DNA of 64,000 nt from a virus. Its lineage: Duplodnaviria; Caudoviricetes. The stretch spans positions 1 to 64,000 of IMG/VR virus record IMGVR_UViG_3300033069_001247, one strand, 5' to 3'. Below, in pieces: positions 7,613 through 56,900 of the stretch. A model generated the notes under the pieces. It worked only from the letters and a program-made list of their open reading frames with translations, had not been told where the DNA came from and ran no database searches. Made by a program: the position numbers and the translations under genes. Every line of letters begins with the position of its first letter. Position 1 is the first letter of the stretch.

Positions 7613-7621
7613 TGGTGAGTA

Positions 7622-8497: not shown

Positions 8498-8506
8498 GGG
8501 TGAACT

Positions 8507-9730: not shown

Positions 9731-9740
9731 CGAGGAAGCA

Positions 9741-11032: not shown

Positions 11033-11042
11033 AAGGTGTGTC

Positions 11043-11531
11043 ATGTCTTTTCCAATGATTTTGGCCGCAGACGATCAGATGAGTGCTTTCCTGGGTTCTG
11101 GGTTCTTCAAAAGTCTGCTCACCGGGGCACTGGTGATCATCGCCATCATGTGGCTGGTTGCACCAACCGTCGCAATGATGCTCAAGAACAAGTTCACCAC
11201 ATTCATCTCCGCCCAGCTCAAGTCACTCCTTGGTCTCGAGGCGAACGCAGCAGTACCGAGCATCGGGGCGCTGCTGGCTCCGAAAGTCGACCCGGCTACG
11301 CCAGTCACCGTGCAGATTACACCGGATATCAACAAGGTCGTTACGGAACGGGCTGCAGAACTCAAGACCGCTTGCCCGATGGCTCCGTCGGATCTACTGT
11401 TGAAGTGGTTGTCACAGGGTTACGACTCCAGCAAGGCCCAGGCCGACTACATCAGTGTGCTGGAAGCGAAGATCAGCAGCGGCACCGGGACTGTGCCAAG
11501 TGCGACTACGTCGTCCTCTCCAACGGCGTAG
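11043..11531 (+). CDS. Single-pass membrane protein
   Basis: LLTGALVIIAIMWLVAPTVAMML TM segment; helical C-terminal domain. Confidence 0.6.
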   Translation: MSFPMILAADDQMSAFLGSGFFKSLLTGALVIIAIMWLVAPTVAMMLKNKFTTFISAQLKSLLGLEANAAVPSIGALLAPKVDPATPVTVQITPDINKVVTERAAELKTACPMAPSDLLLKWLSQGYDSSKAQADYISVLEAKISSGTGTVPSATTSSSPTA

Positions 11532-11571
11532 TCGTGCCAACAGCTTCGTGGTTTTGATGAGGGTGTAGATC

Positions 11572-24843: not shown

Positions 24844-24925
24844 CAGCTTTCGTTGCACAACCGCATTCGATAGTATTTCAGTCGACATTCGTGGCTGATC
24901 AGGAAGATTGAAACGGAGATCAATT

Positions 24926-25630
24926 ATGGCAAGGATCAACCCAGCATTGATGGAGCTGGCCAAACACAAGACGTGGTCGTTGATTAAGTCAGCGGCTGTG
25001 CCACCCGGTGGTGCTCCGATGGATCCTGCTGCAGGCGGTGCTCCTCCGATGGATCCTTCCATGATGGGCGGTGCCCCTCCTGGCGGCGCCCCAGCAGGAA
25101 TGCCCCCTGCCGGTGCCCCTCCGATGGATCCATCCATGATGGCTGGTGGCGGTGCCCCGATGGCACCTCCGATGGATCCTTCCATGATGGGTGCGCAGCC
25201 CGGAATGATGCCAGGAGCAGCCCCCCAAAAGCTGAAGCCCGAGCAAATGATGCAGATGCTCGACTTCCGCCTGTACAACATGCAGCAGCAAGTGACTGCT
25301 ATTATGAATCACCTCGGCATCACCGTACCAGCTGGTGCGTTGGTAACACCTCCCGGGTCGCCCACACCGGTTGCTGAAGCTGCTTTACCGGGTGGTCCGC
25401 AAGATCCAGGCCCGCCACAGGCGGCGGGCGGTGGTGGTGATGCGGGCGGCGGGGCTTCGGCGATTTCATCGATCGCACCTATTCAAGGGGCCAGCCCGGA
25501 AACCGCGAAGCAGGCCAGTGTTTCTGTGGGTTCACCATACCGGGCAGTGGCATCAAACGATTTCTCCACAAGTGGCACGATCACGGATCGCATCGCAGCT
25601 GTCCGGGCCTTGCTGGCATTGCAGAGCTAA
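24926..25630 (+). CDS. Pro/Gly/Met-rich low-complexity protein with KxA motifs
   Basis: IKSAA and AKQAS flank PPMDPSMMGG repeats and a helical segment (MMQMLDFRLYNMQQQV). Confidence 0.65.
   Translation: MARINPALMELAKHKTWSLIKSAAVPPGGAPMDPAAGGAPPMDPSMMGGAPPGGAPAGMPPAGAPPMDPSMMAGGGAPMAPPMDPSMMGAQPGMMPGAAPQKLKPEQMMQMLDFRLYNMQQQVTAIMNHLGITVPAGALVTPPGSPTPVAEAALPGGPQDPGPPQAAGGGGDAGGGASAISSIAPIQGASPETAKQASVSVGSPYRAVASNDFSTSGTITDRIAAVRALLALQS
25013..25191 (+). repeat. Imperfect coding repeats CTCCGATGGATCC(TTCCATGATGG), four copies
   Basis: Copies near 25014, 25043, 25118 and 25166 encode PMDP/PPMDPSMM. Confidence 0.8.
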
Positions 25631-29020: not shown

Positions 29021-29030
29021 ACATGGAGGT
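29021..29030 (+). promoter_or_regulatory. RBS with ACATGGAGGT (CsrA/Rsm consensus match)
   Basis: The same 10-mer occurs at 39707 and 41930; 7 nt before ATG 29038. Confidence 0.5.
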
Positions 29031-29037
29031 TATTCGG

Positions 29038-31515
29038 ATGCTCACAGCACTACCCGCCGGTAAGGCATACTGGTTGGATATTTGCCGCAGTTACTCAGAC
29101 CGTGACTGGCTGACGAAGTCTGCGTCCCTGGGCGGCGACGGTCAAGACACGTCATTCGAACAAGCATTCAGTAACCTGGCCCACGCCTATTTACGGGACA
29201 AGGCCCCAACACTCCTCGATCACGAGCTGGGTTTCCAGCTGATCGATCGGAACCAGGAAAACACCAAGGCCATTGGTGTCTTTGCATTCAAGGTAGGCAG
29301 CCAGCGGCTGTTCGCCCCGGTATTCTTCCTGCGAGGCGAACTCAAGGGGCACGAGCTGCTGTACCTGCGTAATCAAGACGCGTTCGTACCGCTCAAGGAA
29401 AACCGGATCAATGATATTCTGAACCGGAAGCCAAACATTCTGGGTAACGGGGTGGCCCGGCAAACATCGCAACTTGGTGTTCGCTTCCCGGATTTGAACC
29501 GCATATCACAGTCGCCCAGCAAGATGGCGTCTGACCGGTTCAGTCAGAGCGTTCAGCCGTTTTTGCCTGTGATGGCTCACCTGGCAACGCAGGACATGCA
29601 GGAATCGATTTCTGAGTTCCAGAAACACTGCAGTGAGCGATTAAACCTGGCACACTTCATGAAGCAGGCGTCACTGCCAGCGCTGGAAGCCGTTGTGGAC
29701 CTTATGCACCGCAAACCAGCGATCGGGGAAGCCTTTGATCGTTGGTACGGAATGAGCGTCATCAGCGACGCCATCAAGGAAGCCTCTGCGCGGTTGTCGA
29801 TGCACTCGATCACCGACAACCCGTACGTCGCGGTAAATAGGAACCAACCCATCTGGGGGTCATTGCTGTCGCACCTGGAGAAGACAGCCGCTGATGACGA
29901 CAATGGGCCAGATTACCAGCAGAAACTGGAGATCATCACTCCAGAGAGTACGCGGGTGCAGGGTTCTATCATTGCCCTCACGGAAGACGACCAAGAGAAG
30001 CTGCTGAACGACAACGTCTTGATCAAGGACCATCGCAAGGGTGATGAGGTCTCTGTACCTGTCAACCTGCAGGTCGAGGAGAAGTTGTCGAATCCAACAG
30101 ACACCGGCATCTACCAGATGCTGTGCAAGTCGAATGACTTTGAGAAGTGTCTGGTGGTGACGAACCCACACGGACCAAACGGACGCAAAAACGTCAGTAC
30201 CGTTGTGCGGTTGGACGACTCACAACGGAACTGGGCCAACTTCACCCCGCAAGGGATTTTCACGTTGGGTCAGGACGAAAGCCTGCTCGGCGGCGAAGAG
30301 TCGTGGCGGGAATGGTTCGACAGCCTGCCGGACATCACCACCATCTCGGATACGTCCAACGGTGTTTACATGGCGGTTGGCCCACGCCGAAACGCCACGT
30401 TGCCGTTTACGGTGCGTCGTAAGATCGGCACCAACGGCGATACCAAGACCTACGAAGTCCGGTTCTTCTCCGACACAACAGACTCTCAGCCATTCGGTGT
30501 CTCGCGGTCCATGGACAGCTACTCGAATTACGACAGCTGGCGGGATGGTGAACGGCTACACCTGGATGCCAAGATCGGAACGCAGATCCGGTCAGCTGCA
30601 GGTGACGTGTACCTGCCTGTGGGTTACAAGCTGCTGAAGCTAACTGCCACCAAAAAGGTCAGTGACGGGGATGACGACGGTCCGGACATGGAGTGCTCTT
30701 GCAGCGAGACGCTGCCTATCACCCCTGGTAACCTGCTGGACGCCCGGCGGATGCTGCTGGAGAAGACAGCAGCGCTGAAGGTGACACATGATGGCGTGCG
30801 TTACCACATCAACGAGCGTGATAACCTGACCCCTGTGAACTCGTTGATCCATTTGGTCCGTGATCATGGTCTGACTGAAGCGGATAGCCGCTTCATCCTG
30901 AAAGAGGCTGCGGCCCAGAGTCACAAGGGCTCCTCGTTTAGTTGTCGGGTGAAATACGCCAATCCATTCTTGTCGCAGGGTGGGCCGACGGCACCAGGCT
31001 TCAACGATGATGCTGCGATGAACGGCTTTAACCCTATGGGTTTTGCGGGGCAGTCGCAGCAAGGTTACGAACAGGATCTGCCTGTTCCGGATATGTCCGG
31101 ACGTAACACTGACCCCAATATCTACAACGTCAATCCGGCCAACATGCCGGAGCCGATGGACGCCAACGGTGTCAATCGAGCAATCCAGTCAGGTCAACGT
31201 GAGGTATTTGATGTTTCCATGATCGGCTCTATGCTACGGGCCGTGCGTGACGACACGATGATTGATCGTTACCTGCCTGACCTGCTGAAGGCAGTGGACC
31301 GTCTTGGGCGTATCCTGTTCCAGTTCTACTGGCACCAGGATAAGTTTGCAGAACGGTACGGTAAGCAGGACATGCCTGAGTTGGAAGACTCGCTGCGTAA
31401 CGCCTTCGAGATGCTCGATGACGTTGAACTGTTCCTGCAACAGAAGACGATTCAGCCGTACCCGGAAGAAGATGTCCGTGACATCGATCTCGCCAACTCG
31501 GACGACCATAATTAA
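29038..31515 (+). CDS. Large KxA-rich head-module protein (unknown function)
   Basis: 825 aa; TKSAS, SKMAS, MKQAS, IKEAS, EKTAA x2, LKEAA, VKYAN; the ATG at 29023 lies within the RBS, so 29038 is preferred. Confidence 0.65.
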   Translation: MLTALPAGKAYWLDICRSYSDRDWLTKSASLGGDGQDTSFEQAFSNLAHAYLRDKAPTLLDHELGFQLIDRNQENTKAIGVFAFKVGSQRLFAPVFFLRGELKGHELLYLRNQDAFVPLKENRINDILNRKPNILGNGVARQTSQLGVRFPDLNRISQSPSKMASDRFSQSVQPFLPVMAHLATQDMQESISEFQKHCSERLNLAHFMKQASLPALEAVVDLMHRKPAIGEAFDRWYGMSVISDAIKEASARLSMHSITDNPYVAVNRNQPIWGSLLSHLEKTAADDDNGPDYQQKLEIITPESTRVQGSIIALTEDDQEKLLNDNVLIKDHRKGDEVSVPVNLQVEEKLSNPTDTGIYQMLCKSNDFEKCLVVTNPHGPNGRKNVSTVVRLDDSQRNWANFTPQGIFTLGQDESLLGGEESWREWFDSLPDITTISDTSNGVYMAVGPRRNATLPFTVRRKIGTNGDTKTYEVRFFSDTTDSQPFGVSRSMDSYSNYDSWRDGERLHLDAKIGTQIRSAAGDVYLPVGYKLLKLTATKKVSDGDDDGPDMECSCSETLPITPGNLLDARRMLLEKTAALKVTHDGVRYHINERDNLTPVNSLIHLVRDHGLTEADSRFILKEAAAQSHKGSSFSCRVKYANPFLSQGGPTAPGFNDDAAMNGFNPMGFAGQSQQGYEQDLPVPDMSGRNTDPNIYNVNPANMPEPMDANGVNRAIQSGQREVFDVSMIGSMLRAVRDDTMIDRYLPDLLKAVDRLGRILFQFYWHQDKFAERYGKQDMPELEDSLRNAFEMLDDVELFLQQKTIQPYPEEDVRDIDLANSDDHN

Positions 31516-31527
31516 GCGGAGTGACTC

Positions 31528-31953
31528 ATGAGCAAGCCTTGGAGCTATGGTCCAAAGCAGTTTACGATCCCGGCTGGTGCAGCCTCTGTGATCCAGCTGG
31601 ACGTGCCGCACCGTGCGGTATTGCGACGGTTGGGTATCCGCACCACTGTGGACAGTATCACTGGACCGTTCGAGATCTACACCAGCGAGGACGCTGCATT
31701 GGCTGCGAAGGCCAGCGGCGTTACAGCGACGACCTCGTACAGAGGAATGGTTGTCCCGGCTGCCAGTTTCGTGATGCACAGCGGAGCACTGGTTGGCGGT
31801 GTTTACTCCAGTGCATTGGATGTCCCGTACGAAAATGCCGATGGTTCGCCGTCAAATTGCATCCAACGGTTGTGGTTGCGAATCGTGCCGTCTGGTACGG
31901 GTAACCTGACGTTCACAATCAACATGACGATGCAAACACCGTCCATGATGTAA
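31528..31953 (+). CDS. Hypothetical beta-rich protein
   Basis: 141 aa, co-oriented, GGAG upstream. Confidence 0.6.
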   Translation: MSKPWSYGPKQFTIPAGAASVIQLDVPHRAVLRRLGIRTTVDSITGPFEIYTSEDAALAAKASGVTATTSYRGMVVPAASFVMHSGALVGGVYSSALDVPYENADGSPSNCIQRLWLRIVPSGTGNLTFTINMTMQTPSMM

Positions 31954-31986
31954 TTGACAGTCGGTCTCCAGTGAAGCGAGCAGAGC

Positions 31987-32982
31987 ATGTCGTTGTTGAC
32001 CTCCGCAAGTAACCCGTTCCGCCCGGCAGACTGGAGGTGGCAACGAGCCCAAGCGATTGCAGACAGGTCCCGGGACAGTATGCCACCATCACGACAACGT
32101 GATGGTGTGGAGAGCTTCAAGTGGATCACAACGGCTGTTCGTTTTCTGCGAGAGTTCAACAACGCCCGTACTGATGTCGCTAAAGAACTACTCTCTGTCC
32201 GTCGCCCCGGGATATTCTGGGCACACCACATCTGGACACAGACCAGCAACCCGCTGCGATACAGCATCGAAGCCCAGATCCTAGCCCGTTGTGATAATCA
32301 TCTCATCGGGTACAAATGCAATGTGCATCCGGATGTCATCGCCAACTACGAGGCTTTGTTCTTCAATGTCCGGGAGAAGTTGCAACACCGCAGTTACATC
32401 CTGAATGTCGTGATGGGGCCTGCCGTCCATCAGGGTTTGTCAGAACGGGACTACGGGTTGTTGTGGAAGCTGTACGGTTACTTCCTGGGACCGCACGTTG
32501 TTGATGCGCTGGAAGGAAAGTTCGTCAATCCGGTCTGGTGTAACTCTGCGGCAGGTGTCGGTGCCGCCATCATGGACGACTCAGTGGCAACGCTGAAGTT
32601 CAAAGCAGCCCTGGCCTCGAAGACAGTGCCCGTCAACCAATACACGCAGTTGCAGATCCTGGACGCATTCACAAAGTTCGTGGAGATCGAACGCAACACA
32701 GACAGCGCAGGCAAGGCGCAAGACCAGATTCTGGACCACATCTCGGCCATGATGACGACGCTGCCGTTCAGTGTCGGTGGTCGAGCTGCAGAAAAACTGG
32801 TACAACGTGATGTACAGCCGATTGAAGTTTTCGAACGTACTGCATTGGAACTGACGTTCGAAGAGACGCTTCGTATGTCGGCTTACCAGCCGATTGCTCA
32901 CAAGCAGATTCTGGAATCGCTACAGTTTCCCGCACTTCCAGCACCGACACTGTCGCCGACGCCACAGACCAGGGAGGGTTAG
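31987..32982 (+). CDS. Hypothetical protein, possible HTH-like region
   Basis: NPFRPADWRWQRA and IEAQILAR...VIANYEALFFNV segments; no clear function. Confidence 0.55.
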   Translation: MSLLTSASNPFRPADWRWQRAQAIADRSRDSMPPSRQRDGVESFKWITTAVRFLREFNNARTDVAKELLSVRRPGIFWAHHIWTQTSNPLRYSIEAQILARCDNHLIGYKCNVHPDVIANYEALFFNVREKLQHRSYILNVVMGPAVHQGLSERDYGLLWKLYGYFLGPHVVDALEGKFVNPVWCNSAAGVGAAIMDDSVATLKFKAALASKTVPVNQYTQLQILDAFTKFVEIERNTDSAGKAQDQILDHISAMMTTLPFSVGGRAAEKLVQRDVQPIEVFERTALELTFEETLRMSAYQPIAHKQILESLQFPALPAPTLSPTPQTREG

Positions 32983-32987
32983 TCAGC

Positions 32988-34361
32988 ATGCCCAGTATCA
33001 CTCCAGCCACCGAGCAGCGGCTGTTGTCTGTCATTGAGAAGACTGCGGCGTTGGTGAACGAAGGACTTGCACCAAACGACGCGATTGTTAAAGCCGCATC
33101 GTCTGCCGATATCCGACCCACCGAGATCCCGTTGATTGTGCATGCGTACAACACCGGGGCCACCAATCGGCATCGGCAGGATAGCAACGACCCGTTTCAC
33201 AAAGCGGCGTCTTTCGAGTTGGCCGATTCAGAACGTATCCTGGAAGCGTTGTACCCGACAAACGTCAAGACGGCGGCAGTGATCGAACAGGAGACAGCTG
33301 TCTCTGACGAATACGCTCACAGTCCGTTACACCTTGTCGCCCGGCGGGACATGCAGCTCAAGTTGGCCGCCGCAAAGGTGGACTGGCGCAACTTCAATGG
33401 CGAAGAGATCAAAGCCCCTGCTCCGCTGCCTGTCGACGAAGGGTTTCGACAGAAGAAGGCATTTGATCAGCTGTCTCGGGCGTGTGACGCTGCTTCAGAG
33501 ACTCGTCGCAAGGTCGCGGCCGCGCAGATGCAGGCTGCCGACCTGTACGACAGCCTCCTGGGTTACTTCCGGCAGACAGACGCTTACCCGATGCACGTGG
33601 TGAAGGAAGCGGCGGTACTACTGCATGGTCGACCAGGTGAAGTGCTGTTCGATCAGATTGCCGCCACGATGCCGCAGCTCGTGAAACTGGCCAGCAGCAA
33701 TGTCGGGGCCAGCACGGTGACTGTGCATGATCTGGACTGCACGCAGCACCCATTCACGCTCATCAACAAGTTCCTGCAGAAAGTCGCAGAATACACTGAC
33801 CTGGTTGCACAGGATGCACAGTCGCAAGCTGCTTACGAAAAGCAAGCTGCGGAGACCCGCCACCCTTTTCCCGTGTCCGCGAGCCGATCGATCTTGGATA
33901 TCTCCAACTCGGCTGACTCGCGGACCAAGCAGGCAGAATTCGGTGACCCCGTGAAAATGTTGGGGGCCTACTCCATTATGAAGAACACGCTGGGTCCTGC
34001 TGTGCAGAAGCTAAAAGGTCCTGACGACGATACACGTCTGCAGCAGGCCGTTAGCCAGCTCAACGACCCACAGCACGAACTGAAGATGCGAGAGATCAAC
34101 ACGCACGCCATGCTGTCAGATCTGCTGACGAATGACCCGGTGGTGTCTGGCTACAGCAGCCCCGAGGTGATGGAAGCATTCAACCACATCTCGCAGCTTG
34201 CACCGTCGGTATCTGACAACCGCTTGATCATGCAAGGTGCTTTGCGAAAGTATCTGCAGCAAGGTGTGCTGGATCCATTCGACCAGAGCCAACTGCTTGA
34301 TTTTGAAACCCGTCGCCGCAACCAAACTCAACTCGGGGCTGGCCATGCCAATTACGCTTGA
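32988..34361 (+). CDS. KxA-rich helical head-module protein (putative core/internal protein)
   Basis: About 12 K-x-A motifs counted by eye in 457 aa (EKTAA, VKAAS, HKAAS, VKTAA, LKLAA, VKEAA, VKLAS, EKQAA...). Confidence 0.65.
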   Translation: MPSITPATEQRLLSVIEKTAALVNEGLAPNDAIVKAASSADIRPTEIPLIVHAYNTGATNRHRQDSNDPFHKAASFELADSERILEALYPTNVKTAAVIEQETAVSDEYAHSPLHLVARRDMQLKLAAAKVDWRNFNGEEIKAPAPLPVDEGFRQKKAFDQLSRACDAASETRRKVAAAQMQAADLYDSLLGYFRQTDAYPMHVVKEAAVLLHGRPGEVLFDQIAATMPQLVKLASSNVGASTVTVHDLDCTQHPFTLINKFLQKVAEYTDLVAQDAQSQAAYEKQAAETRHPFPVSASRSILDISNSADSRTKQAEFGDPVKMLGAYSIMKNTLGPAVQKLKGPDDDTRLQQAVSQLNDPQHELKMREINTHAMLSDLLTNDPVVSGYSSPEVMEAFNHISQLAPSVSDNRLIMQGALRKYLQQGVLDPFDQSQLLDFETRRRNQTQLGAGHANYA

Positions 34362-35460
34362 CCTTTCGCAGGTATCACTGGAGTCCGCTGCCAAGTTGCT
34401 GGAAATGCAACTTGGCATTTCTGGTATCCGGGCACGTCGCGAAAAGATGGCGATGAGTGCGGGTATGCAAGGTGCGTTGATTGGCGGTATTGGCGGGCTC
34501 GGAACCGGCCTGATGAGTTCGGCCCTGTCCACCGACGAGCGAAAGCGATGGCTGCGTAACGCCCTGGTCGGTACAGCTCTGGGTGCGGGCGTCGGCGGGG
34601 CTGTCGGGTACGGTTCTGACTTGGTGAAGCAGCTACAGAAACCGAGCCCGATTGAGGAAAACCTGAACAAGACAGAGGCAATACAAGCCCGGCAGGCAGC
34701 AGAATCGCAGCCGAATGATCCTATCCGTAACTGGCTCTACGGGAAACCAGCAGTACCCGCTCCGACGGCAGCACCCGCTCCGACGGCAGCACCCGCTCCG
34801 ACGGCAGCACCTACAGCGTCCGCTGGTCCTGCTAAGGTACCATCAGTTAGCGACCTGCAGCCGTCTAACGCTGAAGTCGGTAAAGAGCTGGTGAATCAAT
34901 ACACCGGCAGGCCATACGTAACAGGTGCTACGACTGCTACGGGCGTCGCGATAGGTCATGGCGCAGATAAATTGCGGCAGTACCGTATTACACCTTACGA
35001 CGTGTCCCATCCAGGTAAAGCGCGCTGGGAAGGTATGGTACCGGAAGAACAAGCAGCCGTTAAAGCATTTCAGACGCAAGCTAAGGCCGTACGTGCCGCC
35101 GGGGGTCGCGTCACGCAGCCATTTTTAGGTGGGGCTCCTACGTTCGTAACACCACCACCAAAACCGAACACAGCCAACCGCCGTATCGAATACAGACCCT
35201 CAGTTGCAGAGCAGGCGAGTGCGTTACCGCAACCAGCTCCATTGATCGCAAAGATGGTCAATAAAGCAAAGCAGACATTGAACCCACCAGGTACAGCCCG
35301 AACACAATTTTCACCGCAGACGTGGGATGAAGATATCGTTCCCGCTATGCGACAGAACATGCCGCGTAAGTGGGGCGGGAAGCTCACTGGCGGTGTACTT
35401 GGACTGGCGGCTGCCCCGCTTGCAGAAAGTATTTGGAGCGGTTGGAACGGAACCAACTAA
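34345..35460 (+). CDS. Gly-zipper protein with Pro/Ala/Thr linker
   Basis: EKMAMSA followed by GALIGGIGGLGTGLM and ALVGTALGAGVGGAVGYG; C-terminal LTGGVLGLAAAPLA. Confidence 0.6.
   Translation: MPITLDLSQVSLESAAKLLEMQLGISGIRARREKMAMSAGMQGALIGGIGGLGTGLMSSALSTDERKRWLRNALVGTALGAGVGGAVGYGSDLVKQLQKPSPIEENLNKTEAIQARQAAESQPNDPIRNWLYGKPAVPAPTAAPAPTAAPAPTAAPTASAGPAKVPSVSDLQPSNAEVGKELVNQYTGRPYVTGATTATGVAIGHGADKLRQYRITPYDVSHPGKARWEGMVPEEQAAVKAFQTQAKAVRAAGGRVTQPFLGGAPTFVTPPPKPNTANRRIEYRPSVAEQASALPQPAPLIAKMVNKAKQTLNPPGTARTQFSPQTWDEDIVPAMRQNMPRKWGGKLTGGVLGLAAAPLAESIWSGWNGTN
34755..34811 (+). repeat. 18-bp tandem repeat ACCCGCTCCGACGGCAGC x3
   Basis: Three perfect copies plus ACC; encodes (P)APTAA linker units. 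Confidence 0.9.
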
Positions 35461-35495
35461 GCCATTGTCAATTGCAGTCAGGGAGGCTGCGACAC

Positions 35496-37016
35496 ATGAG
35501 CATCATCAAGACAACTGCATCGTGGGGCGATAAGTTTGAAGGCCCTACCGCGCAGATCGTTGGGCTGTCCAGCAGAGGACTGATGGTCAACGATTACCGA
35601 CAGCTCGTGAAACGGGCCTCGGCAGATATCCTGCATGACATCCAGAGTATTCGGGAAAAGGTAGCGGCGGACGAAACGCTGATCCACCTTCTGGCTATTG
35701 GGGCCACTGAAGACTTTGGCTGTAACCGCAACGGTGACGGCTTCCGACGGGCCACGTGTCGGGCCTACCATCCCACATTCATGAAGCATGCGATGTTCTA
35801 TCGCAATCACGAAAACAAGGATCCCCGAAAGTCGTACGGGCGGCTCGTCAAGTCTGCCTGGAACAACGACATGAAACGGGTAGAGCTGCTGGTTGCGCTA
35901 AACAGCACCGCAGCAGCAGCTCACCGCAACAACGGACTGGTCGCTGATCGCGAGATGGAGAAACTCGCCAGCGGGAAAGACATCCCGGTCAGCATGGCGT
36001 GCAAGGTTCCGTACGACATTTGTTCGTACTGCGGCAATCAGGCCACGACCAGCGACGACTACTGTATGGGTACCTCCGAAGGCGGTATGTGTAAGGCAGG
36101 CGGGCTCAAGAACAACATCGGAGCATTGGTCGAAGTGGATGGCGGTGTGCATCAGCTGCATGCTGACAACGACCGACCATTGTTCTTTGATATTTCCAAC
36201 GTGTTTCGGCCCGCAGACCGTATCGCCTACACCACTGGTGCCCTGTTGAAGTCAGCCAGTGAACACGGTCGCGTAATCAAAAGTGCAGACCTGGCGCGAC
36301 AATTGGGAGTGGTCGTCCCGTTCGAACTGGCGATTGATAACGGGGAACAACCTGCCAACGTGCAGCGGATGCTGAAGATTGCGTACCAGCTGTCTCAGTT
36401 GGAAACAGACATTGAAAACGGTGCCCCGCCTGTTGCGGCAACGTATGCTCCGGCCTTCAAGCCATTGGTACAGGATGGCGACAAGGCCATGCATATTCCT
36501 GTCCCGACACATACGAAGTTCGCGATGGCAATGCGTGCCTTGGCAGATCAGAAGATTTGTTTACCGTTGGCCCGCTTTATCGAGCTGACGACCGACAATG
36601 ACTTTGAGAAGGCTGCAGAGATAGCAGCCGTCGTAGCACACAAGCTGCCGGGTGTGTTTACACGACTGCTATCTCGCAGCGACGTGGCAGAGCGGATTAA
36701 GACCAGCAACTACAACCCAGCTGATACCGAGGCATCGACCTTGTTTGCAGGCTGGGCATATAAGTTGGCGGCTTCAATGTCCCTGCATGCCGAGCATGTT
36801 CAACGTCGTGCAATTCGTGCGGCGTTGTATGACGAAACCGCTGTGCTACGCCGTGCGACACCGCACGAGAAAACAGCAGCATCACGTGATGCTGCGGGTC
36901 AACTGGTCGAAGAGTATGCTCTTTATCAGTTGTCCTTCCTTGGCTCTATCCCTGACGCTGACCCGTGTTCAGCGTTGACACGTTCCCTGTCCGTTGTTCA
37001 GAATTATGCAGCATAA
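35496..37016 (+). CDS. Prohead maturation protease (assemblin/HK97-like fold) with KxA-rich C-terminal extension
   Basis: YRNHENKD (His), RVELLV, PVSMACKV (Ser), CSYCGN zinc-like insert, FFDISNVFRPADRIA (cf. ExSxVxxPA); position upstream of scaffold and capsid genes. Confidence 0.8.
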   Translation: MSIIKTTASWGDKFEGPTAQIVGLSSRGLMVNDYRQLVKRASADILHDIQSIREKVAADETLIHLLAIGATEDFGCNRNGDGFRRATCRAYHPTFMKHAMFYRNHENKDPRKSYGRLVKSAWNNDMKRVELLVALNSTAAAAHRNNGLVADREMEKLASGKDIPVSMACKVPYDICSYCGNQATTSDDYCMGTSEGGMCKAGGLKNNIGALVEVDGGVHQLHADNDRPLFFDISNVFRPADRIAYTTGALLKSASEHGRVIKSADLARQLGVVVPFELAIDNGEQPANVQRMLKIAYQLSQLETDIENGAPPVAATYAPAFKPLVQDGDKAMHIPVPTHTKFAMAMRALADQKICLPLARFIELTTDNDFEKAAEIAAVVAHKLPGVFTRLLSRSDVAERIKTSNYNPADTEASTLFAGWAYKLAASMSLHAEHVQRRAIRAALYDETAVLRRATPHEKTAASRDAAGQLVEEYALYQLSFLGSIPDADPCSALTRSLSVVQNYAA

Positions 37017-37060
37017 AAATTCCGGACAGGGATTTCAGTTTGACAAAGGAGTTGTCGCAA

Positions 37061-38446
37061 ATGGGCAGTAAACCACAGGCGTCGTTTCTCACGGCCCTCA
37101 CTGAGCTGACCGCCACCATCGGACAGGCGAAGCAAGCAGCTGCAAATGGCGGACGCCAGAAAGCGGCTGGGGACCCTATTCCTGCTGACCCCGGCGGATA
37201 CTCTGGCAGCTCTTCGCACCCAACTGCCCACGTGGACAACCACGGGCAGAATGTGCAAGAGGGCGCACGTAGTGCCGAGAACGAGCGAGATGTCAAGGAA
37301 GATCAGGGTGCCCCAAGCGTGAATAACGCTTCGGACATGAAGCCTGGTATTCAGGATGATGTCCAGCTCAACATCGGAACCAAGCAGACCGCTACGGGTG
37401 AAGACCCTGCGGTCGAAGATGACTACAAGGGCGGAAAGGACGACCCCGGGTCGACCCACCCAGCCCGTACTGACAACAATGCACTGGATGGCGAAAAGTA
37501 CGCCAGTGCTACGATTGGTCAGTGCCGCGATTTCCACGGTGAACTCGCGAACTCGATCCTCGCTGACCTTGCTATGGGTCGGGGATCTCAGTTGGGAAAG
37601 CAGGCAGCAGCACAAGCTGCCCCCGCTAAGCCTGCGTCGGAACTGGACACCGCGATCAAGCAGGCAGCAGCTCGGGCGAAAGCCGGTGCCGCTGGCGCTG
37701 ATCACCCTGCCACTGGCAATGCCGATCTGCAGGCCGGTTATGATCTGGCTGCCGCGATCGGTATTGAGAAGCAGGCCGCTCAGTCTGCTGTTGCCGGTAT
37801 GATCGAAACCGCGATCACCGAAGCCCAGGAAGACGCAGACCGTTATGGTGCGTTCTTCACCGGCATCCTCAAGAAGGCTGCCGAAGCCGGGGCATCTGCT
37901 GAAGGTGAAGACCACAGCAGCGACGGCGATGACACCTCCGGAGCTAACGATGCCGAAGGGACCAGCGGTGGTTCCGGAGGCGGACCTGGCGGCGAGCACG
38001 TGAGTGCTGCTGGTGACCCTCCTCCTGGCAGTGATGCTGGCGGGCCTCCCGGTGCTGGCGGGCCTCCTGGTGGCGGCGGGGCTCCTGACGAAGCTGCACT
38101 GATGCAGCTGGTCGCCGCACTGGATGAAGCTGGTATCCCGATCGAAACGCTGATTCAGGCGCTGTCTGGTGGCGGCGGGCCTCCCGGCGCCGGTGGCCCT
38201 CCTGGTGCTGGCGGGCCTCCTCCAGCCGATCCGATGGGCGGCGGAATGGGTGGGCCTCCTCCAGCCGATCCGATGGGCGGCGGTGCCCCTCCAATGGGTG
38301 ACGGCATGAAGCTGGCTTCAGCGGTCAACCGGCTGCGTCGATCCGGTAAGTACCAGTTCAAGGTCGCGTACGCTGGTACCCCTGAGCGTGCTCTGCGGGA
38401 CCAGATGAAGAGCCACGTCGGCGAGATTCTCGGTCGCAAGATCTAG
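37061..38446 (+). CDS. Scaffold-like acidic/Gly-Pro-rich protein
   Basis: Between protease and capsid genes; about 10 KxA motifs; GGPPG and PPADPMGGG repeats; RBS in hairpin GACAA-AGGAG-TTGTC. Confidence 0.6.
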   Translation: MGSKPQASFLTALTELTATIGQAKQAAANGGRQKAAGDPIPADPGGYSGSSSHPTAHVDNHGQNVQEGARSAENERDVKEDQGAPSVNNASDMKPGIQDDVQLNIGTKQTATGEDPAVEDDYKGGKDDPGSTHPARTDNNALDGEKYASATIGQCRDFHGELANSILADLAMGRGSQLGKQAAAQAAPAKPASELDTAIKQAAARAKAGAAGADHPATGNADLQAGYDLAAAIGIEKQAAQSAVAGMIETAITEAQEDADRYGAFFTGILKKAAEAGASAEGEDHSSDGDDTSGANDAEGTSGGSGGGPGGEHVSAAGDPPPGSDAGGPPGAGGPPGGGGAPDEAALMQLVAALDEAGIPIETLIQALSGGGGPPGAGGPPGAGGPPPADPMGGGMGGPPPADPMGGGAPPMGDGMKLASAVNRLRRSGKYQFKVAYAGTPERALRDQMKSHVGEILGRKI

Positions 38447-38506
38447 TTCCGCCGGTTGTTTCCTTTCCCAAAATTAACCGCTGACTCTGTCACGGAGGAG
38501 TCTCTG

Positions 38507-38932
38507 ATGAAAACCCCGAATCTGGCAAACATGACGTTGCCGGAAAAGGTGATTGAGCAAATCACCCTGTCCAACGTTGCCTTGGAAAAGGCAGCCAGCA
38601 TCGAGCAACGTGCTGCTACCAAGCAGGCGTCGGTCGATGCGTTGATTCCGAAAGTTGTGGACGCCCTTGTCGACAACGATCGGATCCATCCGAACGAGCG
38701 CGAAAAGGCCGCTTCGATGCTGCGGGATCCTGTTCAGGCTCTCAATCTGCTGATGAGCTGTGCCCAGCATCACGTCGGCAACGACGGTGGTCGACTTGGC
38801 AGCCCGCTGCAGAAGGAAGCCGCTGCGAAGCCACAAGCACCTGCACGGTCTCCGTTCGTGGGTGTTCGCGGTCAGCACAGCGAAGCATCCGATCGACTGT
38901 TGGCCGGACTGGGTCTCCCAGTCAACTCGTAG
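38507..38932 (+). CDS. Small KxA-rich helical protein (scaffold/core-like)
   Basis: EKAAS x2, TKQAS, QKEAA in 141 aa; RBS TCACGGAGGA. Confidence 0.6.
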   Translation: MKTPNLANMTLPEKVIEQITLSNVALEKAASIEQRAATKQASVDALIPKVVDALVDNDRIHPNEREKAASMLRDPVQALNLLMSCAQHHVGNDGGRLGSPLQKEAAAKPQAPARSPFVGVRGQHSEASDRLLAGLGLPVNS

Positions 38933-39025
38933 TTCTGATCTGCAGCGACTTGTAGCAACCATGGTTGGTTGCTGTTCTTTCACGATGTACGCTCATTATG
39001 AGCGACTGAAATATGGAGGTTTCCC

Positions 39026-39607
39026 ATGCCTGGTCAGGCTCCCTCGCTTCAAGCAGAACACTGCCTGAATCACCTGAAAGGGTGGTTCGATATGTCGGCA
39101 CTGGACTACAGCGCTAAGCTGTCCAGTGCGGTTACGTTGCAGGCCTTTGGTGGCCGCGTTGCTCACTTGAACGCCAATGGCGAATTCGAGATGGGTATCT
39201 CCGGCACCAAGATGGCCATCTTCTTGCTGCAAGCTGACACCGACCTCGATGTCAGCAATCCTGGTATCACCGGTGCCGGTAACTTCATGCACCAGGCCAT
39301 CGCTCCTGCCGGAAATATGTCCGGACTGGTGGCGACCGGTGGTTACGAACTCGATACTACCGAGTTCGACAAGACTCCTGCTGTGGCTTATGCCCCGAAT
39401 CAGTTGCTGACTGCTAAGGCGAGCAACACGGTACAGGCCACCGGTGGTGTGCTCAGCAACGACCGTAACGGCGCAGGTGGAAGCGCTGGTTCGGTTCGTC
39501 CGTACCAGGATGCTGCGTGCGGTGTGGTCTCCCGAGGCCAGTACCGTAACGAGCACAACGTCGAAATGCTGGCCTTCTGGTCAATCTACCTGCCAGGCAC
39601 CGTCTAA
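39026..39607 (+). CDS. Capsid decoration/cement-like protein
   Basis: 193 aa Gly-rich beta protein directly upstream of the major capsid gene. Confidence 0.55.
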   Translation: MPGQAPSLQAEHCLNHLKGWFDMSALDYSAKLSSAVTLQAFGGRVAHLNANGEFEMGISGTKMAIFLLQADTDLDVSNPGITGAGNFMHQAIAPAGNMSGLVATGGYELDTTEFDKTPAVAYAPNQLLTAKASNTVQATGGVLSNDRNGAGGSAGSVRPYQDAACGVVSRGQYRNEHNVEMLAFWSIYLPGTV

Positions 39608-39706
39608 CAGCCTGACGCTTCTGCTTGTCACCATCGTTTGTCCCGGGGTGGTCTATGATGGCCACCCCTCTTTCGCACCATCACCGAGCAGGCGGATAAA
39701 CCTGCG

Positions 39707-39716
39707 ACATGGAGGT
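39707..39716 (+). promoter_or_regulatory. RBS with ACATGGAGGT (CsrA/Rsm consensus match) of major capsid gene
   Basis: Exact consensus match 5 nt before ATG 39722. Confidence 0.5.
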
Positions 39717-39721
39717 TACAA

Positions 39722-40654
39722 ATGGCTGCTTCGCAAGCCGAAACTGTGTTGCTGAACGAGACGCTGTTCGATCAGCTGCTCACTCCGGGTATGGAGAAGA
39801 AGGCTGTTGACGCTGTCAACGACTTCACCCGTACCAAGATGCGTGAAGACGGGTTCTTCCGTCGGATCATGCCACCGGTCAAGATTTCGAATGACGAACT
39901 CGATCGTCAGTCGGATACTCCCAAGCCGGTCAAGATCATCGACAAGGAACCAGACAGCCCTGCGGCTGTCTCGATCCCATTTGGTACGCTGCCCACCAGC
40001 GTGTACATCAAGGGTCCCAGGTACCGCGTGAGCTTCGACCGAATCGTGACCCCGCGGTTCCAGGTCGACGTGGAAGAGATGCGAACCTGGGTCATGGATA
40101 TTCGGCAAGTCCTTTCGGACAATGCACTTAAAGACGTTTTGGCAGAGGAAGACGGCAAGTTCATCGCGGGCTGTAACCAGCTCATGATCGGACCCGATGT
40201 TCCTGTGCCATACAACGGCAACCAGGTGCAGTGGAAGACGCTGGACGGCGGCCTGACTCGCGAGACTCTCCAAGAGGCTCGCAAGATCATGCCACGCGGT
40301 CCTTCGCATCTCGAGGCTCACACCGCCCTGATCAACAACGTCACCGTGAAGGAACTGGAGAAGTTCCCACGCGACGAAATGGGTGGTGACTTCAGCCAGG
40401 ACGTTCTCAAGAACGGATGGGCTGAAGCGAACTTCGCAGGCATGAACTGGATCATCAGTATCAAGCGCGACCTGATCCCTGACGACAGCATGTTCATGTT
40501 CTCGGACCCTCGGTTTATCGGGAAGGCGTTTCTTCTCGAAGACACCACAATGTACGTGAAACGCGAAGCGTTCATGATTGAGTTCTTCGCATACCAGACC
40601 ATGGGTGCGACGATCGGTCATCCTGGCGGCATCGCCCGGGCAGACTTCGCGTAA
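39722..40654 (+). CDS. Major capsid protein (HK97 fold)
   Basis: 310 aa; REDGFFRRIMPP, IVTPRFQVDVEEMR...DIRQVLSDNALKDVLAEEDGKF pattern; position after protease/scaffold/decoration genes; strong RBS; followed by a terminator. Confidence 0.8.
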   Translation: MAASQAETVLLNETLFDQLLTPGMEKKAVDAVNDFTRTKMREDGFFRRIMPPVKISNDELDRQSDTPKPVKIIDKEPDSPAAVSIPFGTLPTSVYIKGPRYRVSFDRIVTPRFQVDVEEMRTWVMDIRQVLSDNALKDVLAEEDGKFIAGCNQLMIGPDVPVPYNGNQVQWKTLDGGLTRETLQEARKIMPRGPSHLEAHTALINNVTVKELEKFPRDEMGGDFSQDVLKNGWAEANFAGMNWIISIKRDLIPDDSMFMFSDPRFIGKAFLLEDTTMYVKREAFMIEFFAYQTMGATIGHPGGIARADFA

Positions 40655-40677
40655 GTTGTACTTGCTTGAAGACTTCG

Positions 40678-40724
40678 CCTCTGGTAGGGTAGGGCTTGAC
40701 AGCTCTCCCTACCAGAGGATTTTT
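40678..40724 (+). terminator. Intrinsic terminator after major capsid gene
   Basis: CCTCTGGTAGGG...CCCTACCAGAGG 12-bp stem, inner AGGGC/GCTCT stem, TTGACA loop, then ATTTTT. Confidence 0.75.
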
Positions 40725-40726
40725 CG

Positions 40727-41428
40727 ATGACCGAAAGCATCTACCAGCGACGAATCAAAGCAGGCAATTGCGGGAAGTGTGGCGATCCACGCGAAGACAA
40801 AGACGCCAAGATGTGCCACGACTGTGCCGGTAAGGAAAGAGCCCGGTCAGCAGCCAGACGTGTGAAAACAGCAGCCAACGGAATGTGCAGTGCGTGTGCT
40901 GCACGGCCCCGCCTACCGAACAGCAGTCGTTGTGAGAAGTGCAAGCAGACATCGGCGGCGTCCACAAAACGCCGCCAGGACAGGTTGAAAGCAGCCGGTC
41001 TCTGTGTTCACTGCGGTGTACCAGTGCCTGCCGGACGCGTGACGTGTGAAGTCCACAGTCAACAGATGAGCAAACGGGCAACAGACAAGTACCACGAACG
41101 AAAAGCCGCCGGTACCTGTTGTCGCTGTGACGAGCCTGTTGTGAATGGGCAGCCCACCTGTGAACGCCACACGGCTATGGCCGCGGCCAACCGCAAAGCA
41201 CTCCGCAACAAAGTCCTGAAGCGATACGGTGGCAAATGCCGCCGGTGCAAGGAAACCAGAATCGACCAGCTGGGAATGTCCCGCATTCCCAGCAAAGCAG
41301 ATCCAGCAACGAAGGGGATGGGTGGTCACCATCTCAACTGGTGGTTGAAGAAGAATGGGTTCCCTAAAGGATTCAGGATTCTTTGCCAGACGTGCAAGGC
41401 GACTCTCCGACAAGCAAAGAAGGGGTAG
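40727..41428 (+). CDS. Zinc-finger repeat protein with degenerate HNH-like C-terminus
   Basis: Four G-x-C-x2-C...C-x2-C/H repeats; RYGGKCRRC...GFPKGFRILCQTC parallels the 24247 HNH but lacks the DH motif and the final Asn. Confidence 0.7.
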   Translation: MTESIYQRRIKAGNCGKCGDPREDKDAKMCHDCAGKERARSAARRVKTAANGMCSACAARPRLPNSSRCEKCKQTSAASTKRRQDRLKAAGLCVHCGVPVPAGRVTCEVHSQQMSKRATDKYHERKAAGTCCRCDEPVVNGQPTCERHTAMAAANRKALRNKVLKRYGGKCRRCKETRIDQLGMSRIPSKADPATKGMGGHHLNWWLKKNGFPKGFRILCQTCKATLRQAKKG

Positions 41429-41487
41429 CCCGCTGTCGGATTCAAATACCATCTTCGATCGCAAGATCAGTTCTCATGGAGGCGAAC

Positions 41488-41871
41488 ATGCCGCAGCAAA
41501 TGCTCACAGCTCAGGAAGCTCACACCGTTTTCCACAACAAGGTGTACGCACCAGTCTTCTTCGAGAAGCTGGCCCAGGATTACAACATCCGACCCACCAG
41601 CGAAACAGAGGCGCAAGAGATGCTGGTGATGGCATCGCAGTTGCGATCGCTGCATGAAGCAGAAAACGAAAAGCGGGCTGCCAGCCGACCTGATCCAATG
41701 GCGATGGCCCGCAACATCCTCGACAACCAGCTGGCCCAGTATGGTTTCAGCAAGCAGGCTGGTACCGTACAGAACCAGAACCGCGTCAAGCAGTCCGCTG
41801 CTGCCGCGTCGTTTGACTCCGAACTGGCTCACGCCGCCCTGTCCGTGCTGGCACAGCACAACGCGGCGTAA
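41488..41871 (+). CDS. Small KxA-containing head-module protein
   Basis: EKLAQ, EKRAA, SKQAG; RBS TCATGGAGG. Confidence 0.6.
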   Translation: MPQQMLTAQEAHTVFHNKVYAPVFFEKLAQDYNIRPTSETEAQEMLVMASQLRSLHEAENEKRAASRPDPMAMARNILDNQLAQYGFSKQAGTVQNQNRVKQSAAAASFDSELAHAALSVLAQHNAA

Positions 41872-53914: not shown

Positions 53915-56900
53915 ATGTCGGAATACGTAACAGTGTGGCCAGGGAGTGAGCCGCCGCCCGGATACGCGCCGATGTCTGCGATGCAAGCCATGCACGGGCG
54001 GCAGCCTATGTTTGCAGCAGATCCAGGACCGCGATACACCGGGCCGTTTAATACGGGGACACCTGCGGACGGCATCATGCACATGCTGTTGCCACAACTC
54101 CTACAGATGATGACGCAGGGTCGGCACATGCCAGCCCAGTTCTTCCCCCAGCAGCAGCTGTACGATCAGCGTGAAGCCACGCGATATTTCAACGCCAGTC
54201 AGCAAGCAATGGCAGTGGCTGCCCGACGGGACGCGGGTACGGTCAACGACATGCTCGGTGGTCTGACCGAGATGATGACAGGTCGACCGCTAACTGATGT
54301 GCAGCGTTCCCGTAACTTTCGCATGGCCAGCGGCGTCTCGCAATTCACGCCGCTACTGATCAACATGCTGGGTCCGGATCTGGTCGACCAGTTGCACGGT
54401 ACCCGGGGCTCCGCCACCGTGCTGTCGCAGCAGCTGCACAATGCCATGCGGACGGCAATTGACCCTATCTCCCACACCGTCGGTTACTCCGGGGAATCTG
54501 CCGGTCGACTTTCGCAGGAGATCTTCGAGCGGAATTTCGGGAAGGGTGCTGACCTGGGAGTCATGAAGGGGATGTCTGCAGGTCAGGCGGGTATCCTGGT
54601 CAACGAGCTGCAAGCCCGCGGTATGCTGGGGCGACCCATGGGTTTGCTCTCTGTGGATGAACAACGATCCTTGCTACCGCGTACATTGCGTGACGACACG
54701 ATTTCCCGGCTGGCGGAGACGCTGCCTGAGATTCAGGAGATCCTCAAAAGCGGAGGTACTCCCAACGAAAATGCATTGACGGAGGCTAAGGCCAAAATCC
54801 GGGAGACGCACAAGAAGCTGACAGATCCGACTGTCCAATTCACCGCAAAAGACCTGAAGGATTACGATAAGCTGCCGGGTGGCGAAGAGATCATCCGCGC
54901 TGGTGATGCGGACCGGATCGCCGATCGGCTGAAGAATATGTCTGGCGTTGTGCGGGCAATGCGAGACATTTTCGGCGACATGGGGAATCCGAACGCCCCG
55001 ATGCGGGACATCATCAACGGACTGGAAGAACTGACTCAGAATGGGTTGGCCACCATGTCTGCCGGACAACTGGAGATGATGGTCCGCCGAACACACAACA
55101 TCGCCAAGCAAACTGGTATCGGTGTGCAGGGGATGATGGGACTGATGGCTGGCGGTGCCGCGATGAGTGATAGACTCGGTCTCGATCGCAGCTACGTACC
55201 TATGATCGCCCAGCAGTCCGCGTTATTCGGTGCTGCTGCCGGAGATCACCTACGCCTGGATATTCCGGTATGGGGTGCCGCCTCAAAAGAACAACTGCTG
55301 CTCACTGATCAGCAGTTACGCACACACGCTTCAGCGTCACCGTTGGCTAACCAGTTGAATGCAACACTGCGCATGATGGATACCGGAATCGCAACACCAG
55401 ATGCCGGTACAGAGCTGGCAGCCATGATGCAGGCTGTAAAACTGGGACAGACAGAGTACACGCATGACGGCAAAACCAACAGCATTTTAATGTCGCACAA
55501 CCGTCTGCTGCAGATGCTGAAGCGGGATGCAGGCGTCGGGGCTACCGAAGCCTACGCCGTCATGTCTGACATCCAAGGGAATCAAGAGTACGGTCCGAAG
55601 TACAACACGCCGGATCTGGTCCGTCGGATCATGCCCCAGGAAGCAGTACGTAAGTTACTGCAGCCAATGATCGGCAGTCGGCTGCGTGGGCTGTTCAACG
55701 ACTCGGGTATGTCCGAGACGCTCAAGGAAACCGGCGTCGCAGACAACGAAAAAGAACTACGAGAGTTGACCCTGCGCCTCGGTCAGGGTGTCGGGACCGA
55801 TTGGAGAAACATGGATTCAGCCACCAATCGTGATCCTGCTGCCAAGCAGGCCTATCTGGGTGCGTCACTGCGGAAACGCTTATGGGGTGAGATCCGCGCG
55901 AAGTATCCGAATGCTACCGAAGCAGAGATCGACGCAATGACTGACCGCAACATCGAAAAGCTCGGCGGTGCCAAGGGTCTGTCTGATGCGGGTAGTGTGA
56001 TCCAGGCCACGATCAACCAGGCTGCCAGTACGAACCCAGCGTTTCGCACAGAGGTACAGATGTTCGGCGTGATGAACATGGCGACGATGGGGCAGGCAGC
56101 AGCCCGAGGACGACAGGCCGAGATTGCAGGGCTTACACAGTCAGCAATGGCGGGGTTGGGGACAGCTGATCCCATTCGCCGATTATCTGATGCGTTCCAG
56201 AACGCCAACAAGGACACGCCGTTCGGAGAGGTCGTGGTACAGGGATTGGGTGCGGTTAATGTTGACGCTGTGAATGCCGCTGACCCTCAAGGTCCGCTGG
56301 CCCAGATATTCGGTCTTGTACAGGCCAATAAAGATCTGGACGCCAATGACCCGAAGCAACTGGAGCAGGCTCGCCGGAACTCAGCAATGCTGCAAGGGCT
56401 TATCAACGGCGGAGCGACAGCAGCGGCACAATTGAAGCTACTGGATGCGGCTGAAGCTGCAGGTCAACCAAAAAATGAACTGCTCCGCCGACATCTCGAG
56501 GCGGCGTCAAAACGGGACAGTAATACCAGTCTGTTAGGGGACCTGGGTTACTCGCTCAGTGCCAACGTCTCGATAGACCAGATCGCGGCCATTCAGGACA
56601 GCGGTAAAGATATGCGTCGTGTTCTGTCCGATGATGCGGCATCTGCTGCCGACCGTACAGCGGTGGCGACAAAGTACCTGCTGGGCTCAAAGGAACGCGC
56701 GAAACAACTCCTCAATGACGAACGGTCAATGGAGATCATCGGCCAAGGCGGTTTAGCACTGGTGCAGGGTACGATTGCTGACGTAGACCGGATTCAGGAG
56801 CTGGTGAAAACCCAGTCTGAAGCGACCGGTCACGCTATCACATTTGATGACATCCTTTCTGGTAAAAATGGCGTCAGTGACGACGCTCATAGCGAAGCCA

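Follow-up and report, generated by a model that had tools for sequence, protein, structure and literature searches.

Does a short sequence that recurs in the head genes of an uncultured phage mark the places where its head proteins are cut? The question is raised by the head module of the IMG/VR virus record IMGVR_UViG_3300033069_001247 (Caudoviricetes), whose predicted proteins repeatedly contain Lys and Ala separated by one residue (K-x-A). The window analyzed here is the first 64 kb (positions 1–64,000) of this 86.8-kb viral contig, which had a CheckV completeness of 43%, and the head module occupies 29,023–41,871. A first-pass annotation had proposed that the open reading frame (ORF) starting at 35496 encodes a protease that cleaves K-x-A-(A/S). 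Our analysis favors, with a probability of about 0.7, the reading that a fuller motif, (L/F/M/I)-x-K-x-A-(A/S), is the recognition code of ORF 35496 as the phage's own prohead protease.

Head-maturation proteases decide which proteins stay in the phage head, leave it, or become activated inside it. To our knowledge, only a few model phages have head proteases with established cleavage rules, and these rules end in Glu, or in Lys for HK97. If the proposed code is true, propeptides and mature domains could be mapped from sequence in otherwise unannotated proteins, the assemblin fold would gain a new specificity class, and the proposal could be tested immediately in the cultured Salmonella phage Arash. 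Phages of this group also seem to have an RNA polymerase in their virions, and head processing bears on how injected proteins are prepared.

Enrichment and conservation of K-x-A in the head module

All long ORFs of the window lie on the + strand, and the GC content is 52–58%. The phage collection gave no nucleotide-level match to the window. The nearest cultured relatives are the Salmonella phage Arash (181 kb) and the Vibrio phages D69, D148, and D181 (~187 kb). The group of large phages is widespread: a search of the metagenome protein database at E ≤ 1e-3 gave 711 homologs of ORF 35496, a large share of them on contigs of 190–230 kb. The comparative set comprised 35 related IMG/VR loci, of which 17 representatives were used for the motif scans. 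The order of the head-module genes is a 457-amino-acid (aa) protein, a membrane-like ORF, the protease, a scaffold-like protein, a 141-aa protein, a 193-aa protein, and the capsid protein. This order is identical in the 35 loci, Arash, and D69, so that the protease gene adjoins the scaffold and major capsid genes. Pfam and PHROGs returned next to nothing for the module proteins, and a tblastn search with the Arash portal protein gp204 found no portal in the contig.

K-x-A was found 12 times in ORF 32988 (457 aa), 12 times in ORF 35496 (506 aa), 11 times in ORF 37061 (461 aa), 10 times in ORF 29038 (825 aa), four times in ORF 38507 (141 aa), three times in ORF 41488, and once in the capsid protein. 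The counts made by eye in the first-pass annotation were reproduced almost exactly, the single deviation being ORF 37061 (11 instead of "about 10"). As a control, the pattern K-x-A-(A/S), written K.A[AS] below, was counted in 1,000 composition-preserving shuffles of each protein. The observed and expected numbers were 7 and 0.38 in 29023–31515, 9 and 0.52 in 32988–34361, 6 and 0.67 in 35370–37016, 8 and 0.91 in 36965–38446, and 4 and 0.26 in 38456–38932. None of the shuffles matched the observed number in these five main ORFs (z = 6.6–12). The six module proteins together held 52 K-x-A (K.A) against about 15 expected and 35 K.A[AS] against 3.0, whereas the remaining + strand ORFs of the whole contig were at 92 against 95.5 and 20 against 15.2.

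An unbiased scan counted every pair of residues separated by 0–3 positions, with the expectation taken from the composition of each protein. K.A ranked first among the 1,600 gapped pairs in the window module (52 observed, 14.8 expected, p = 5e-14), and it also ranked first in Arash gp218–225 (44 observed, 19.7 expected) and in D69 genes 266–274 (50 observed, 20.7 expected). The same pair led in 17/17 IMG/VR representatives, with 46–59 observed and 14–26 expected in all of them except L036, in which three module proteins were recovered (30 observed, 13.5 expected). Non-module ORFs of the same loci were at chance level in most of the 17 relatives and moderately above expectation in L034 (23 vs. 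14.2), L035 (26 vs. 16.4), and L036 (30 vs. 20.4). The positive control, gp21 and gp22 of phage T4, placed the known pair L.E first and I.E fourth. The scan returned the known L/I-x-E rule and is therefore able to recover a true protease code. Phage G (17 vs. 7.9) and phage Myrna (22 vs. 12) gave a weak K.A excess, in neither case significant after multiple testing.

The codons at the sites include all four Ala codons, both Lys codons, and Ser codons of both the TCN and AGY families. Because the codons are mixed, the signal is at the protein level and not at the DNA level, and a DNA-level repeat was rejected as the source of the motif. Equally Ala-rich neighboring ORFs were not enriched: 34237–35460, with 59 Ala and 22 Lys, has only 2 K.A, and 53915–57634 has 2 against 6.9 expected.

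A sequence logo was built from 873 sites of the relatives. Two residues before Lys it shows Leu and Phe, joined by Met and Ile at conserved sites, and one residue before Lys it shows Glu, Val, Thr, and Ile. The spacer between Lys and Ala can be any residue, and the position after Ala is Ala or Ser, a combination present at 42% of the sites in relatives and 67% of those in the window. The pattern in Arash and D69 is (G/x)-(L/M)-x-K-x-A-(S/A). The fuller consensus is (L/F/M/I)-x-K-x-A-(A/S). The motif described in the first-pass annotation is real, but it is wider than stated there and includes a hydrophobic residue two positions before Lys.

The motif residues are conserved beyond their background. 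In six ortholog-group alignments, the conservation of Lys within K-x-A was 0.55, compared with 0.38 for other Lys (p = 5e-4), and that of Ala was 0.62, compared with 0.41 for other Ala (p = 2e-5). At 25 well-conserved sites, Lys was retained in 636 of 689 alignment cells and replaced by Arg in only five; Ala was substituted chiefly by Ser (28) or Gly (6), and the middle residue was free. A strict Lys together with a strictly small residue fits two enzyme pockets.

The candidate prohead protease and its predicted substrates

The candidate prohead protease is encoded at 35496–37016 (+ strand, 506 aa) and comprises an N-terminal catalytic domain at approximately residues 17–238 (35544–36209, + strand) and a C-terminal helical domain. 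The candidate catalytic residues are H105 and S166, and the domain also carries D232-x-S234 within the sequence FFDIS and a Cys4 zinc ribbon (C176, C179, C190, C199). An AlphaFold2 (AF2) model was built with 26 homologs and reached a predicted local distance difference test (pLDDT) score of 75. VIA-align of this model against 48,161 PDB chains placed T4 gp21 (5jbl) first, with Z 8.3 and a root-mean-square deviation of 4.0; 143/165 residues were aligned to model residues 17–238. The protease of varicella-zoster virus (VZV) was the second match (Z 6.0), and that of human cytomegalovirus (HCMV) was lower (Z 3.9). Foldseek against BFVD gave 19 matches at E ≤ 1e-3, among them annotated prohead proteases at E values of 2e-4 to 1e-3. 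The assemblin or T4 gp21 fold that had been suggested for ORF 35496 is supported by the VIA-align scores of 8.3 and 6.0 and by the BFVD matches. The catalytic domain models as the T4 gp21/HK97/herpes-assemblin fold with a zinc-ribbon insert.

The N-terminal half of the protein is homologous to Gordonia phage genes annotated as "capsid maturation protease", to phage G gp19, and to the N-terminus of proteins of cluster C mycobacteriophages. The homologs in Arash and the D69 group are 36% and 30% identical, respectively, over half the protein. When the protein was aligned with Arash gp222, gene 270 of D69, phage G gp19, and Myrna gp97, the conserved features were His105 within N-H-x-N-x-D, Ser166 within V-S-M, F-F-(D/E)-(I/L)-S, and the inserted CxxC...C zinc ribbon. 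Across 26 family members, neither H105 nor S166 varies. The order of this candidate pair, His before Ser, and its spacing fit, as read from the sequence, the pattern of approximately 50–60 residues of the fold.

K-x-A sites lie on both sides of the catalytic domain. K39-R-A41 (35610–35618, + strand) is directly upstream; it does not vary among 26 family members and also occurs in Arash, D69, phage G, and Myrna. K252-S-A254 (36249–36257, + strand) is directly downstream, is conserved in Arash, D69, and phage G gp19, and sits in a disordered inter-domain linker (residues 235–278, pLDDT < 50 in the AF2 model). Sites on either side of the catalytic domain are the layout expected for self-release of the domain.

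The HK97-type major capsid protein is encoded at 39722–40654 (+ strand; phrog_2522) and is 30% identical to the Arash major capsid protein gp226. The first-pass annotation had noted one K-x-A at capsid residues 26–28, and this was confirmed: K26-K-A28 (39797–39805, + strand) is the only K-x-A of the protein, with none downstream, and its Lys and Ala are invariant in 28 distinct relatives. It is the predicted maturation site. The capsid proteins of Arash and D69, which are about 30% identical, have G-L-x-K-E-A-G at the equivalent place, residue 27. Downstream of the site, the proteins of the 28 relatives contain 2 K.A against 24.2 expected. K.A was also depleted in the 193-aa and 141-aa neighbors without enrichment (10 vs. 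18.9 and 4 vs. 11.1). A motif-rich scaffold and core, combined with avoidance of the motif in proteins that must survive, is the pattern predicted by a cleavage code.

The other motif-bearing proteins of the module are the predicted substrates. By tblastn, the 830-aa protein (29023–31515, + strand; 825 aa when counted from the ATG at 29038) is homologous to gp218, a virion protein of Arash. Six of its 10 K-x-A fall within residues 27–284 and three within residues 576–641, and the sites K32, K214, and K644 are conserved at 83% or more. An ESM Atlas search with this protein gave no usable match. The 457-aa protein (32988–34361, + strand) has all of its 12 K-x-A in residues 18–316, spaced 17–37 residues apart. 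It is only 21–47% identical to its relatives, and no more than 12 alignment columns are without variation; K35, A37, and K314 are three of these, and K72, A74, and K233 are nearly invariant. Its AF2 model is all helical, with a disordered linker at residues 294–346 that holds the invariant K314. The C-terminal helical bundle (residues 347–450) is confident in the model, conserved, and without sites. Its probable architecture is a propeptide that would be cut into 17–37-residue pieces, joined to a mature C-terminal domain.

The 461-aa protein (37061–38446, + strand) is rich in Ala, Gly, and Pro and has 11 K-x-A; we infer a scaffold role from its position and composition. The 141-aa protein (38507–38932, + strand) has four K-x-A followed by a conserved C-terminal tail of 36 residues. 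The 127-aa protein encoded downstream of the capsid gene (41488–41871, + strand) has three K-x-A, and its orthologs have 2–5 K.A[AS] against approximately 0.5 expected.

Proposed processing scheme and rival explanations

The motif is conserved in position: it flanks the protease domain and occurs at the N-terminus of the capsid protein, and the mature shell protein is nearly free of it. The flanking sites, the capsid site, and the avoidance in the shell form the pattern known for the protease codes of T4 and SPN3US. In the proposed scheme, the protease would free its catalytic domain inside the prohead by cuts at K39-x-A41 and K252-x-A254. It would then remove approximately 28 residues from the capsid protein and chop the scaffold-like and core proteins (ORFs 29023, 32988, 37061, 38507, and 41488) into short peptides. 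These peptides would leave the head or stay in it as small internal peptides, and the C-terminal domains without sites would survive. If the motif is cleaved, we lean toward a cut after Ala, with Ala at P1, Lys at P3, and a hydrophobic residue at P5, by analogy with the P3-x-P1| sites of characterized proteases of this fold and in view of the Ala position, where substitutions are limited to small residues. The possible alternative is a cut on the other side of the spacer, after Lys, as in HK97.

Several observations weigh against this reading. No cleavage product is on record for any member of the group, and the virion proteome of Arash gives per-protein coverage only, from a preparation with many non-structural proteins (PMC10585845). 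The depletion of K.A in the capsid proteins is inflated by relatedness: approximately nine divergent lineages give roughly 3 observed against 9–10 expected. Sequence methods did not recognize the protease. Pfam gave no match for the protein and 26 family members even at E = 10, Peptidase_S77, S78, and S80 included; a PDB sequence-profile search with the protease gave none; and hhalign against T4 gp21 gave a probability of 0.5%, so there is no profile similarity. Judged by these searches, ORF 35496 is outside all curated sequence families (Peptidase_S77, S78, and S80). Foldseek of the model against the PDB also gave no match, and the fold assignment depends on one aligner (Z 8.3) and on matches to predicted structures. 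The catalytic pair H105 and S166 is one that we infer from the alignments. Many K-x-A sites are within predicted helices. Apart from these points, hhalign reported a six-residue SSRGL match to T4 gp21, which was rejected as a coincidence because it is out of register with the structural alignment.

Since many sites are helical, a structural or docking role of the motif is possible. K-x-A would then be an uncut short linear motif that docks the scaffold and core proteins and the N-arm of the capsid protein to the shell interior, the portal, or each other, or a signature of helix ends. Predicted helices hold many of the sites, inside or at their ends, the Glu preceding Lys and the Ala-rich flanks are typical features of helix-forming sequences, and cleavage has so far been observed nowhere in the group. 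However, the spacing of the sites is irregular (10–145 residues), and sites are also found in disordered linkers, at residues 235–278 of the protease and around K314 of the 457-aa protein. Sites flank the catalytic domain of the protease itself in five lineages, and the lone capsid site has a position at which many HK97-fold capsid proteins undergo trimming. K.A is avoided in the mature capsid body, as expected of a cleavage site and not of a docking motif, and Ala is swapped almost solely for Ser or Gly, which fits a small S1 pocket. On balance, we consider an uncut motif improbable, although it is the rival that survives best.

The motif could also be cut by another enzyme. The window encodes three further peptidase-like proteins, namely a trypsin-like protein (12879–13874, which would cut after Lys), a papain-like protein (12010–12852), and a matrixin-like protein (9720–10580), and a host protease is a further candidate. 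The Staphylococcus phage 80alpha is reportedly processed by a host protease, and a trypsin-type specificity would account for the strict Lys. Yet Lys is almost never replaced by Arg, unlike in typical trypsin specificity. Trypsin_2 (PF13365) is absent from Arash and two relatives (100% and 93% complete), all three of which are enriched in K.A; the same search detected the family in this contig and in 13/14 control genomes. None of five relatives had a direct homolog of the trypsin-like or the papain-like ORF. The trypsin-like and papain-like peptidases were rejected as the agent because they are not conserved among the motif-bearing relatives. Against a single host enzyme, the motif persists across phages of Salmonella, of Vibrio, and of unidentified hosts. 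Cleavage by any enzyme other than ORF 35496 is very unlikely in our judgment.

The three peptidase-like genes were also characterized. The product of 9720–10580 is a matrixin (Peptidase_M10, E = 1e-23) with a peptidoglycan-binding domain, and that of 12010–12852 is a papain-family C1 peptidase (E = 8e-8). The trypsin-like gene at 12879–13874 (Trypsin_2, 25.8 bits, slightly below the cut-off) clusters with the matrixin and papain-like genes. By Pfam, the trypsin-like family is present in 2/5 relatives checked, though direct homologs are absent there.

A trivial origin of the enrichment, in Ala/Lys composition (the alternative named by the first-pass annotation), in low-complexity sequence, or in a DNA repeat, would be suggested by the 12–17% Ala of the module proteins. 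It is virtually out of the question, because the per-protein shuffles, the pair scan, and the contig-wide expectations, all built on each protein's own composition, leave an excess beyond Ala/Lys content, equally Ala-rich neighbors are unenriched, the site codons are mixed, and the motif position is kept across relatives only 21–47% identical.

Comparison with known systems and the motif outside the module

Cleavage by ORF 35496 at (L/F/M/I)-x-K-x-A-(A/S) would resemble several known systems. T4 gp21 (MEROPS S77) cuts at (L/I)-x-E| in gp22, gp23, gp24, gp67, gp68, and the internal proteins, and the motif of phiKZ gp175 is S/A/G-x-E. The maturation and release sites of herpesvirus assemblin (MEROPS S21) are (V/L/I)-x-A|S, and HK97 cuts after Lys at K103|S104. 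In phage P1 the cut is at E120|S121.

T4 gp21 is the best structural match of ORF 35496, and the gene has the same position beside the scaffold and capsid genes. As in T4, not only the scaffold and core proteins but also the protease is enriched in a three-residue motif of the P3-x-P1 type, which is the same statistical signature. The proposed scheme also shares with T4 the loss of an N-terminal piece of the capsid protein and the chopping of the scaffold into small peptides. In contrast to T4 gp21, sequence similarity is undetectable, the motif residues are Lys and Ala instead of Leu/Ile and Glu, and the protease of the window has a zinc ribbon within its catalytic domain and a helical C-terminal domain of 270 residues. 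The predicted propeptide of the window capsid protein is only approximately 28 residues, unlike that of T4.

In the phage SPN3US, the protease gp245 recognizes an (S/A/G)-x-E motif that is present in multiple copies in N-terminal propeptides; these are removed by cleavage, and the mature parts are C-terminal (PMC10052503). The module resembles phiKZ and SPN3US in having multiple motif copies in the N-terminal parts of many head proteins, with C-terminal parts predicted to be mature, and the phage appears to package an RNA polymerase, as phiKZ and SPN3US do and as Arash does. The P1 residue in phiKZ and SPN3US is Glu, and cleavages there were shown by mass spectrometry and protease mutants, while here they are predicted from sequence and models. 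With Lys and Ala/Ser/Gly as the constrained residues and a P1 that is not Glu, the specificity class would be different from that of T4, phiKZ, and SPN3US.

The herpes assemblins are similar in that the VZV and HCMV proteases are among the structural matches and in that P1 would be Ala and P1′ Ser or Ala if the cut is after Ala. In that case P3 would be Lys and not a branched hydrophobic residue, and the herpes proteases cut two kinds of site, not dozens. The closest counterparts are Arash (gp222 with gp220, gp223, and gp225) and D69, D148, and D181, which have true protease homologs, the same gene order, K.A enrichment, and the capsid site. These are cultured phages, and the proteins are annotated merely as "structural" or "hypothetical". 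The Arash paper does not mention a protease, processing, or a motif, and its supplement has sequences but no peptides (PMC10585845).

A literature search did not find a published K-x-A rule, nor a description of this specificity, of the zinc-ribbon protease family, or of the phage group. The kind of system, a prohead protease with a short motif across head proteins, is well known; a Lys-x-Ala specificity would be new. As a tentative extension, which we think doubtful as a whole, (L/F/M/I)-x-K-x-A might be the ancestral specificity of an entire, hitherto uncharacterized class of zinc-ribbon HK97-fold prohead proteases, and leaders of approximately 30 residues ending in K-x-A might form a capsid-targeting-and-release code, comparable to the capsid targeting sequence of T4, from which head cargo could be read in the sequence. 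On the same tentative reading, members of the class would occur in hundreds of uncultured phages of approximately 200 kb, in Arash, the D69 group, and the Bacillus megaphage G, and possibly in the cluster C mycobacteriophages.

Outside the module, the motif did not serve as a predictor of head cargo, as the first-pass annotation had hoped: K.A[AS] was observed 20 times against 15.2 expected, and an N-terminal (LIVMF)-x-K-x-A within residues 6–60 was found in 8 ORFs across the contig against 4.1 expected, which is not significant. The motif had also been noted in ORFs 4659–9730, 15395, 16670, and 24926. Its occurrence there is at chance except in 7622–8497, which is individually enriched (3 vs. 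0.24, p = 0.003). This ORF encodes a 291-aa protein with 2H phosphoesterase (PF22547) and SET (PF00856) domains and is the sole non-module ORF with a significant K.A[AS] excess. Four other non-module ORFs (2658–3395, 4659–6674, 11036–11557, and 24908–25630) have a single (L/I/V/M/F)-x-K-x-A at residues 25–31, and this distance from the N-terminus equals that of the capsid protein and several module proteins. The four may carry a leader that is removed, and we regard them as leads, not predictions.

The zinc ribbon of the protease (36021–36092, residues 176–199) differs among lineages. It has four Cys in the clade of the window; the ribbon of Arash, D69, phage G, and Myrna has a His right after the third Cys (YC-x-H) as its fourth ligand position, and its loop is approximately 11 residues shorter. 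In several relatives (P0016, P0036, P0062, P0070, P0099, P0103, P0119, and P0120), the protease gene encodes 864–886 aa and contains LAGLIDADG or intein-splicing Pfam domains. These domains indicate that the head protease is an intein target in this group, as RNA polymerase is.

Two ORFs of the module region vary among the loci. The ORF at 34345–35460 (listed as 34237–35460), between the 457-aa protein and the protease, is fast-evolving and unenriched in K-x-A. Its sequence includes membrane-like segments rich in Gly as well as APAPTAAP repeated in tandem, and a counterpart was detectable by BLAST in only 1/35 loci. The ORF at 40727–41428, between the capsid gene and the gene of the 127-aa protein, encodes a Cys-rich protein of 233 aa with many CxxC pairs. 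It was found in only one of the 35 loci and therefore looks like a recent insertion.

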